Sequence record: PQ511047.1
Direction: 5' to 3' (one strand)
Length of the DNA stretch: 44,416 nt
From: Escherichia phage UHP65
Below the pieces are notes generated by a model. The model saw only the letters and a program-made list of their open reading frames with translations. It did not search any database and was not told the DNA's origin. The translations under genes and the position numbers were made by a program. This document shows positions 25,968 through 27,419 of the stretch, piece by piece (position 1 is the stretch's first letter; each line of letters starts with the position of its first letter).

Positions 25968-25990
25968 AGGGGCCGTGCGGCCCCTCTCTT
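25968..25990. terminator. bidirectional terminator between convergent genes
   Basis: aaaaaAGGGGCCgtgcGGCCCCTctcttatttc. Confidence 0.65.
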
Positions 25991-27419
25991 ATTTCTTCAA
26001 ATCTTCCGCCTGCTTCAACGCCGCGATCTCCGCCTTCAAATCCTCCACCTGCTTAATCGTATCCTGCAACGCTCGCATAGTGTCGAGTAACAGCGGCGCC
26101 GTATCCAGTTCAAGCTGGTGCACCAGCGGCCCGTTCAGTTCTTCGTTGTGGTATATGCGGTGCTTTACATACAGGGGGTCGATTTCTTCCAGTTCTTGCG
26201 CGATAACACCGCGGCGCTGCCGTTCCTGTTCGTCGTTGTTGAATACGAATGTGCGGAATCGCATAGCCTTAATGTTGTCGTATGCTGTGCTGCTGGTGTC
26301 ATCGGCAATATCGTGCTTAAGGTTGCGGTCCGACGCTGGCACTTGCTGGAATGACCCCGACCCCTCTGACCCCGCCGAGTAGGAGATAGTGCCTCGAAAG
26401 CTGAATCTGAACTGGGTCTGTCGGTCTATGTTACCAGCCGCGTCGCGGTCCATTGTGCCGACGGAAATCTGCGCAGTAGGCCAACTGGCCCCGCCAGTCG
26501 TCATCATGCCAAACGCAACGCCACTGGAAAAGCCGTACCCGGAAGTGCCAACCGCGCCGCCTACCAGAGATTGGTAGTTTTCCACGCCGTTGTCCGCAAG
26601 CCAGGCAGGGCCACGGAATAGCGCGCCTGACCACAATTGGCTATAGCCCATGTTTGTTTTCGTAGCCGTGAAATTTTGGGCGGTGACCTGCGACGGGGTT
26701 CGCCAATCTGACGCGTCGAAGTTATACACAAATTGTGTTGGGTATCCACCCTCAGTGCCGAGCGGCATAACATACATCCCCGGAGGCGACACGCCGTCGG
26801 GCATGAGCATTAACAGCGACGCCCTTACTTCTGCGGTCCCCCAGCTATTCCCGTCCCACGTAGCCCGTCCTGCTTGGATACGCGCGTTGGTGACTAGTCG
26901 GTTGACGGTAACGTTATCCGTCGGCCCGATGCCTAAGTGACCGCGCGCTGCCGCGGGGTCATCAACGTCGCTAAGGTTGTTGGACTTAGCCAGAAATTTC
27001 GACGGGTCGATCTGCTTCATTAGCTCCGACAGGTAGCCCCATGACATACCCTGCATTACTTGCCCGTTAGGTAACGTAACGGTGATTTCTTCAGCGTCTC
27101 CGAAGATTGCACGCCAGTTGTTTTCATCCGCGATCATCAAGCGTAATGCTTTCTGCGCCTGGACCGTTACGCCCATCGTCGCCAGCGACATGGTGTCGCG
27201 CTTAACGCCGTCCCACGCAAGGCCGGTTGCCGTTGGGCCGTCGAACGGCAGCACCAAAGTAAGCGCGGTGTCGTTCTCGACGGATGAAATTGCGATAGTG
27301 TAAGGGACTTGCCCCACCACCAGCGTTAAGAAGTCGCCAGCTTTAAACGCGGTAAACGTCGTGCCTACCCCGACAACCGCCTTGCTGTTATTCGTTACGG
27401 ATAGTGTACCCGCTGCCAT
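25989..27419 (-). CDS. tail fiber / receptor-binding protein with C-terminal S74-like intramolecular chaperone domain
   Basis: C-terminal ASDRNLKHDI (Ser-Lys dyad context) and coiled-coil tail; N-terminal ~70 aa resemble the 34302..34901 protein. Confidence 0.7.
   Translation of the reverse strand: MAAGTLSVTNNSKAVVGVGTTFTAFKAGDFLTLVVGQVPYTIAISSVENDTALTLVLPFDGPTATGLAWDGVKRDTMSLATMGVTVQAQKALRLMIADENNWRAIFGDAEEITVTLPNGQVMQGMSWGYLSELMKQIDPSKFLAKSNNLSDVDDPAAARGHLGIGPTDNVTVNRLVTNARIQAGRATWDGNSWGTAEVRASLLMLMPDGVSPPGMYVMPLGTEGGYPTQFVYNFDASDWRTPSQVTAQNFTATKTNMGYSQLWSGALFRGPAWLADNGVENYQSLVGGAVGTSGYGFSSGVAFGMMTTGGASWPTAQISVGTMDRDAAGNIDRQTQFRFSFRGTISYSAGSEGSGSFQQVPASDRNLKHDIADDTSSTAYDNIKAMRFRTFVFNNDEQERQRRGVIAQELEEIDPLYVKHRIYHNEELNGPLVHQLELDTAPLLLDTMRALQDTIKQVEDLKAEIAALKQAEDLKK

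Follow-up and report, generated by a model that had tools for sequence, protein, structure and literature searches.

A tail-fibre-type barrel on the distal tail protein of the Dhillonvirus Escherichia phage UHP65

Why do two different proteins in the tail of one phage begin with the same domain? In Escherichia phage UHP65 (sequence record PQ511047.1), of which a stretch of 44,416 nucleotides was analysed (the window), a lateral tail fibre of 476 amino acid residues (aa) is encoded at positions 25989-27419 of the minus strand, and a second tail protein is encoded on the same strand at 34302-34901. The window belongs to a Dhillonvirus, a small siphovirus of Escherichia coli. A preliminary description of this DNA had noticed that the two proteins share their N-terminal ~70 residues, and had suggested either domain shuffling or two alternative fibres docking at one site. 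In this study, it was found that the first ~72 residues are indeed homologous. The second protein is the distal tail protein, a homologue of lambda gpM that should form a ring where the tail tube ends, and it is not a fibre. The explanation that best covers all observations, to which I assign a probability of about 0.6, is that a modular fibre docks on gpJ, the central fibre or tip protein, and that an accessory barrel has been captured on the ring protein. The fibre itself is of an ordinary type. Less ordinary is that the distal tail protein has captured a fibre-type barrel. The sequence comparisons establish the homologies, where the modules begin and end, how the barrel is distributed, and which residues are catalytic; the cleavage of the fibre, its docking site, and the role of the barrel on the ring are inferred.

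One barrel on two tail proteins

The two N-termini were compared by several methods. BLASTP aligned fibre residues 1-70 with residues 14-83 of the open reading frame (ORF) at 34302-34940 without a gap (33% identity, 56% positives, E 2e-7). The Smith-Waterman score of the pair was 94, versus 25.4 +/- 4.6 for composition-preserving shuffles (z = 15), and none of the 5000 shuffles reached 94. Pairwise alignment, which the preliminary description had named as a way to check the resemblance, thus places it far above chance. When the two families were aligned by hhalign, the probability was 98.2% and the E-value was 5.4e-14 over 76 columns. When all six reading frames of the window were searched with a hidden Markov model (HMM) built only from fibre N-termini, just two ORFs matched, namely the fibre (6e-37) and the distal tail protein (1.9e-19), and PHROG tail-fibre profiles match residues 14-85 of the 34302-34940 ORF (2e-14 to 2e-18). 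Across the barrel, 23 ungapped positions are invariant, including GT, GxGT-F, YT, and GPT motifs. The wording that one N-terminus closely parallels the other was right about the similarity and generous about its closeness, because the barrels of the fibre and the distal tail protein have a protein identity of 31-33% and a DNA identity of 45%. These values point to an old relationship and not to a recent duplication. A recent duplication within the genome was considered and is ruled out by the 45% DNA identity together with the existence of closer relatives elsewhere.

The homology of the two proteins stops at residue 72 of the distal tail protein, after which the gpM core begins without a stem helix. 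Of the two window proteins, only the fibre has a stem helix after the barrel. Fibre residues 1-145 were modelled with AlphaFold2 (AF2) from an 80-sequence alignment, with a predicted local distance difference test (pLDDT) score of 87. The single-sequence AF2 model of the distal tail protein is of low confidence (pLDDT 34), and the barrel fold of this protein is thus assigned from homology and from the fibre model. Foldseek returned nothing at E <= 1e-3 from a PDB copy older than entries 23gd and 25ve, and the barrel is not represented by any model in Pfam or NCBIfam.

What is the second protein? In a match of sequences alone, the product of 34302-34901 is ~97% identical to chain B of PDB 23gd, 'Distal tail protein gp20' (E 3.6e-132). 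Pfam Phage_min_tail (PF05939) matches residues 99-200 of the 212-aa ORF (43.5 bits versus a cut-off of 39), the gene has the tape measure gene on one side and the gpL gene on the other, and the core matches the minor tail protein of phage T1 (9l9p_H, E 9e-13), 9l9p being the T1 tail tip complex. Entry 23gd also contains 'J-like tail tip protein gp24' (23gd_D), which matches gpJ of the window. Literature searches found no paper describing 23gd and none for the T1 tail tip. As the source of 23gd, the Sf11 paper was a false lead, and the Avs-1 paper was rejected as its 'distal tail protein gp20' is from an unrelated phage with other PDB codes. The proposal of two alternative fibres at one site is therefore not supported, as the second protein is the distal tail protein and lacks the stem helix found in all fibres.

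In an alignment with gpM proteins of 111-125 aa, the first 78 residues of the distal tail protein appear as a clean N-terminal addition. The extra β-barrel, paralogous to the fibre anchor, occupies aa 1-72 (34686..34901, minus strand), a short linker occupies aa 73-80, and the core with the gpM tail-tube fold occupies aa 81-199 (34305..34661, minus strand). GenBank places the start at the ATG at 34940 (212 aa), which overlaps the stop codon of the tape measure gene. The ATG at 34901 (199 aa), used in the preliminary description, has a GGGGG run resembling a Shine-Dalgarno sequence 7 nucleotides (nt) upstream, PHROG 9922 begins there, and chain 23gd_B has 199 aa. The start at 34901 is favoured over that of GenBank.

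How widespread is the barrel? Word-indexed protein searches were shallow (10 and 6 matches), and a profile query was also used. In an exhaustive search, a profile of both window barrels matched 4117 representative clusters at E <= 1e-3, mostly from residue 1 of proteins of 200-800 aa. Among the best 150 representatives, about 110 have a stem and about 32 have an S74 end, and the gpM core occurs in the Dhillonvirus cluster only. The fibre anchor is present in cultured phages including HK225, ES18, ENT39118, and a Klebsiella phage, as well as in many enterobacterial prophages. As a separate observation, about 30 of the best 150 have 2-13 tandem barrels, mostly in large proteins of 600-2900 aa (for example, P0017-P0021 and P0039). 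Three proteins with many copies were scanned, and all of them have PKD domains too. Among the source names of tandem-barrel proteins are 'PKD repeat protein' and, from a cyanobacterium, 'putative baseplate assembly protein', and the tandem repeats weakly match Pfam Phage_attach (lambda gpFII).

The fibre modules and gpJ as a candidate docking partner

The 476-aa product of 25989-27419 matches PHROG 1980 (E 9e-124). Its counterpart is labelled 'putative tail fiber' in Escherichia phage jat (MN850650) and is a tail fibre in other Dhillonviruses too. It is an ordinary modular lateral fibre of the type already described for the genus (PMC8594841; PMC11990801). All its modules lie on the minus strand. 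The six-stranded β-barrel, the anchor domain shared with the ring protein, spans aa 1-72 (27204..27419). The following segment, aa 73-141 (26997..27203), comprises the stem helix, a β-hairpin, and a short helix; in the AF2 model, the barrel covers residues 5-72, the stem helix 74-105, the hairpin 112-124, and the short helix 127-135. Arg93, Asn101, and Trp102 are invariant in an 18-sequence alignment of fibres; in the 80-sequence alignment, Asn101 and Trp102 are invariant and Arg93 is nearly so. The barrel and the stem segment together are a conserved anchor module that ends at about aa 141. The exchangeable distal shaft and receptor-binding part spans aa 142-362 (26334..26996), where identity to other Dhillonviruses is lost, and the Peptidase_S74 intramolecular chaperone (Pfam PF13884) spans aa 363-476 (25992..26333).

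The exchange of the distal part can be seen in the comparison with other genomes. Other Dhillonviruses align to the fibre gene over nt 1-424 only. The gene order of the window is collinear with that of phage jat, and the identity is 94.4% over the compared 22 kb (window 22001-44416). A block of 1047 bp at 25979-27025, coding for fibre aa ~132-476 and the stop codon, is 100% identical to jat. In the rest of the compared sequence, identity to jat is about 92-95%, and in the flanks of the block it is ~89-92%; the 394 nt that encode the anchor have 44 mismatches to jat (about 89% identity). Since the block is identical while its flanks diverge, a recombination breakpoint lies near aa 132. It looks as if the distal fibre cassette was recently exchanged.

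The preliminary description was also borne out in recognising an S74-type chaperone region at the end of the fibre. The Pfam match covers residues 363-418 (E 1.1e-12, 48.4 bits versus a cut-off of 22), and the ASDRNLKHDI motif lies at residues 362-371. Ser363 and Lys368, five residues apart in SDRNLK at the start of the domain, are the catalytic Ser/Lys pair; their aligned counterparts in a solved T5-like L-shaped fibre (PDB 8hqz_d, E 1e-9) are Ser959 and Lys964. The match to 8hqz_d extends to fibre residue 470 and includes the C-terminal helical tail. A C-terminal chaperone domain has already been described for Dhillonvirus fibres (PMC11990801). From the alignment, self-cleavage is predicted to occur before Ser363 and to release the chaperone from the mature trimer. 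The computed masses are 51.5 kDa for the full-length fibre, 38.3 kDa for the mature fibre, and 13.3 kDa for the released domain. The fibre would then consist of three modules, that is, a conserved anchor, an exchangeable receptor-binding part (aa ~142-362), and an S74 chaperone that may help the trimer to fold before Ser363 and Lys368 remove it.

Where may such a fibre attach? In F-pyocins, the central fibre has a coiled-coil shaft on which three fibre trimers dock by barrel and stem (PMC13455828; PMC12874032; bioRxiv 10.64898/2026.02.24.707460), and two fibres, PA0643 and PA0646, have one shared anchor (bioRxiv 10.64898/2026.02.24.707460). The barrel of the distal tail protein matches residues 5-81 of the F2-pyocin side fibre 25ve_A by phmmer (E 8e-5), and the fibre-only HMM matches both side-fibre genes of an F2-pyocin locus, L088 (2.7e-7 and 7.3e-9). 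A search of fibre aa 1-145 against all PDB sequences (E <= 10) returned 23gd_B and chance matches only. Unlike the F-pyocin locus and a Salmonella prophage (L005), the window has no second fibre gene with a shared anchor. The two fibre genes of this prophage (7982-9391 and 10001-10792 of the locus) have a common anchor module, like the F-pyocin side-fibre isoforms.

The gpJ homologue (28750-32169, minus strand; 1139 aa; Pfam FNIII-A_GpJ, Phage-tail_3, and Phage_Tail_Tip) matches the F2-pyocin central fibre 25vf_A with an E-value of 2.5e-225 overall and 1.7e-18 for shaft and tip. By homology with the F-type pyocin, the UHP65 fibre would most likely dock through its barrel and stem on the helical shaft of gpJ and not on the ring protein. 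At the start of this shaft, gpJ has an acidic, glycine-containing motif, DEYMKGLDDEFLTSEDGKR (aa 832-850; 29620..29676, minus strand), with the consensus (D/E)Y(L/M)xGxxDDFLTSEDG. The motif is kept in the J proteins of loci L002, L003, L005, L006, and L007, the shafts of which differ by up to ~60 residues in length. Of 26 viral loci that have an anchor-type fibre, 21 matched an HMM of the motif, versus 5 of the 48 loci that lack such a fibre (Fisher p = 2e-9, uncorrected for phylogeny). Is this motif the docking gap of the pyocin shaft? The idea was rejected, as phmmer gave no alignment and the motif HMM matched none of 48 Pseudomonas loci. Because the motif cannot be equated with that gap, gpJ aa 832-850 is put forward here only as a candidate docking site.

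Is the ring-protein barrel needed for fibre attachment?

The fusion of the barrel with gpM was found in 157 phage records, all of the Dhillonvirus type, and in all six Dhillonvirus contigs examined. All 112 of the other gpM homologues examined lack the barrel, and among them are near-identical Dhillonvirus variants in which the same fibre anchor is retained. None of 74 other viral gpM loci and none of 33 Pseudomonas loci has the fusion; anchor-type fibres were found in 21 and 48, respectively. Two metagenomic Dhillonviruses, L003 and L004, are such variants. Their tape measure protein (TMP), gpK, gpI, and gpJ are 98%, 98%, 99%, and 96% identical to those of the window, and their fibre anchors are 91-94% identical, and their gpM consists of the 123-aa core only, with 66% identity. 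Natural 'deletion' variants of the ring-protein barrel thus exist. In both, gpL (L003:10362-11609 and L004:6133-7380) has 415 aa with an insertion of ~150 aa after residue ~60, for which no Pfam match was found. These phages carry a swapped cassette of gpM and the 5′ part of gpL. An anchor-type fibre together with a short gpM was also found in L002, Klebsiella phage KLB16, a Salmonella prophage, and a Serratia prophage.

Do the two barrels evolve together? Among 31 phages, their divergence is uncorrelated (Spearman 0.28, p = 0.12). In phage bov22_1, the ring-protein barrel is 70% identical and the fibre anchor 95.7%. The ring-protein barrel also diverges faster than the core behind it (75.6% versus 97.5% identity in P0003). 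It is 43-50% identical to fibre anchors of enterobacterial prophages versus 31-33% to the anchor of its own fibre. Of the two proposals in the preliminary description, domain shuffling is the one that agrees with these data, as the ring-protein copy is nearer to prophage fibre anchors than to its own fibre and the ring proteins of close relatives are barrel-less. Recombination with some fibre gene, the 5′ end of which was captured, is the probable origin of this copy, and not a duplication of the phage's own fibre gene. The distal tail protein would form a hexameric ring between the tail tube and the tip, with the extra N-terminal barrel alone and no stem. This barrel is most likely an accessory decoration of the ring surface, like the extra domains of T5 pb9 and of the distal tail protein of phage Chi, and it is probably dispensable for fibre attachment.

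Several points weigh against docking on gpJ with a merely accessory barrel on the ring. All 157 records with a fibre anchor at least 80% identical to that of the window appear to keep the ring-protein barrel; this retention argues for a selected function, and the barrel is probably useful. The 150-aa insertion in gpL of L003 and L004 could compensate for the missing barrel, and these variants are metagenomic assemblies known from sequence alone. The position of the fibre on the Dhillonvirus tail is taken from homology, and no fibre chain is modelled in PDB 23gd. Phmmer with the single fibre sequence missed PyoF13, so that the link between the fibre and PyoF13 is made by profiles only. The association of the gpJ motif with anchor-type fibres is confounded by the shared ancestry of tail modules. 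In addition, no such motif was detectable in the central fibre of the pyocin, where the acidic docking gap (TRDDADDGNG) lies elsewhere in the shaft.

What else could the ring-protein barrel do? It may be a weak binder of the host surface, for example of a glycan, that aids reversible adsorption independently of the fibre, so that its homology to the anchor would be only historical. I regard this function as a tentative possibility. Exposed decorations with this fold are found repeatedly on tail tubes, distal tail proteins, and capsids, and some large PKD-repeat surface proteins contain the barrel in tandem arrays. The faster divergence of the barrel than of the core (P0003) and its 70% identity in bov22_1 are typical of exposed adaptive surfaces, and the loss of the barrel with the gain of a 150-aa gpL domain in L003 and L004 suggests interchangeable peripheral decorations. 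However, the barrel matched no carbohydrate-binding family in Pfam or NCBIfam, and no ligand or binding site is known for it. Besides, such an adhesin would be a special case of the accessory barrel favoured here and not a true alternative to it.

The main competing explanation makes the ring the real docking site. Six ring-protein barrels would form or nucleate a built-in collar at the junction of tube and ring, and the barrels of the fibres would join it by like-with-like contacts. Such a collar would functionally resemble the 12-copy collar of Ur-lambda Stf N-domains or the p132 collar of T5. Since the Stf N-domains of Ur-lambda surround the junction of gpV and gpM and contact gpM at Lys2 and Trp6 (PMC12617516), the N-terminus of gpM is exactly at the position of the collar. 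Since F-pyocin barrels make a pseudo-sixfold ring through lateral contacts (PMC13455828), the barrel domain can self-oligomerise. The restriction of the fusion to Dhillonvirus-type records, with its presence in every Dhillonvirus contig examined, is also in keeping with a built-in collar. Nevertheless, I consider it unlikely. L003 and L004 combine a 91-94% identical fibre anchor with a barrel-less ring protein, L002, KLB16, and the prophages have the same combination of anchor-type fibre and barrel-less gpM, and the two barrels show no co-divergence. The ring-protein copy also lacks the stem, which in pyocins gives part of the contact as a six-helix bundle with Lys80 and Arg87. The missing fibre chain in 23gd counts weakly in the same direction, as such maps usually have their best resolution in the ring region.

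A more specific form of contact is doubtful to a greater degree. The ring and fibre barrels might co-assemble, so that the ring would carry six permanent 'pseudo-fibre' anchors, and these would either give the lateral fibres a second docking position (for example, stowed at the ring versus deployed on the gpJ shaft) or complete a mixed collar of 12 members. If true, this would be an undescribed mode of fibre attachment by like-with-like domain contacts. Finally, a chance or compositional similarity of unrelated N-termini, for which one could cite the identity of just 33% over 70 residues and sequences rich in Gly, Thr, Val, and Ser, is refuted by the shuffles (z = 15), the hhalign E-value of 5e-14, the independent PHROG and HMM matches, and the 23 invariant positions.

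The tail module in context and comparison with known systems

The tail module of the window is lambda-like and lies on the minus strand in the order TMP-M-L-K-I-J, which was also found in loci L002-L007. The tape measure gene (34937-37579) is followed by the 199-aa gpM homologue described above (34302-34901), gpL (33517-34305), gpK (32774-33514), gpI (32166-32783), and gpJ. On the 3′ side of gpJ, there are two small minus-strand ORFs of 100 aa (28411-28713) and 224 aa (27737-28411). The ORFs at 27737-28411 and 28411-28713 match PHROG 425 and 557, and they are presumed to be the receptor-binding locus of Dhillonviruses. A gene for a cor-type superinfection exclusion lipoprotein (27499-27717) lies on the opposite, plus strand between the fibre gene and these two ORFs. 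Some near-identical Dhillonvirus genomes carry other host names in their records (Campylobacter phage A144, Acinetobacter phage NJ01, and Sodalis phage SO-1), and these labels look doubtful.

What do these results mean for tail evolution and for fibre engineering? In a distal tail protein that has captured a fibre anchor, nature provides a clean case of modules being shuffled between ring and fibre. The portable anchor module, from aa 1 to about 141, has a natural breakpoint and offers a basis for swapping receptor-binding parts among Dhillonvirus and lambdoid fibres in host-range engineering. The barrel also connects the newly solved attachment mode of F-pyocins with the lateral fibres that common E. 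coli siphoviruses carry. The importance of the findings is limited in that the chaperone end was known for the genus, the ring-protein structure had already been deposited, and the extra barrel is probably accessory.

The T5 pb1 and DT57C L-shaped fibres and the endosialidase-type tailspikes likewise have a C-terminal S74 domain with the aligned Ser/Lys pair and the helical tail. However, the N-terminal attachment of the T5 fibres is unrelated, as they dock on a separate collar protein, p132 (PMC12617516; PMC13455828), and the UHP65 fibre is far shorter (476 aa versus over 1000 aa). A lateral, O-antigen-directed role has been proposed for the Dhillonvirus fibre (PMC8594841; PMC11990801). In Ur-lambda, the trimeric side fibre Stf is similarly attached to a lambda-like tail tip by a small N-terminal β domain followed by a helix. 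There, 12 copies form a free-standing collar and gpM of lambda has no fused domain. In the all-PDB search (E <= 10), the fibre anchor had no sequence match to the solved lambda chains, the Stf N-domain, or the p132 collar domain.

The side fibres of F-type pyocins (PyoF13 / PA0643 and PA0646; PDB 25ve and 25vj) have an N-terminal barrel of the same family followed by a stem helix. Their central fibre is homologous to gpJ and, like gpJ of the window, has a coiled-coil shaft and a Phage_Tail_Tip domain. The exchangeable distal part and the separate small adhesin genes after gpJ are further likenesses. In contrast, the distal tail protein of the pyocin has 113 aa and no barrel, its fibres have separate chaperone genes and an R-pyocin-like tip in place of a C-terminal S74 domain, and the acidic docking gap of its shaft is not recognisable in gpJ of the window. 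Decorated or 'evolved' distal tail proteins are known from T5 (pb9 with an OB-like domain), phage Chi, and Sf11 (gp17), and the Sf11 adaptor is a helix that bundles with the N-termini of the tailspike (PMC12724387). The extra domain of such proteins has mostly been described at the C-terminus or as an insertion, whereas that of UHP65 lies at the N-terminus and is paralogous, at the level of sequence, to the anchor of the phage's own fibre.

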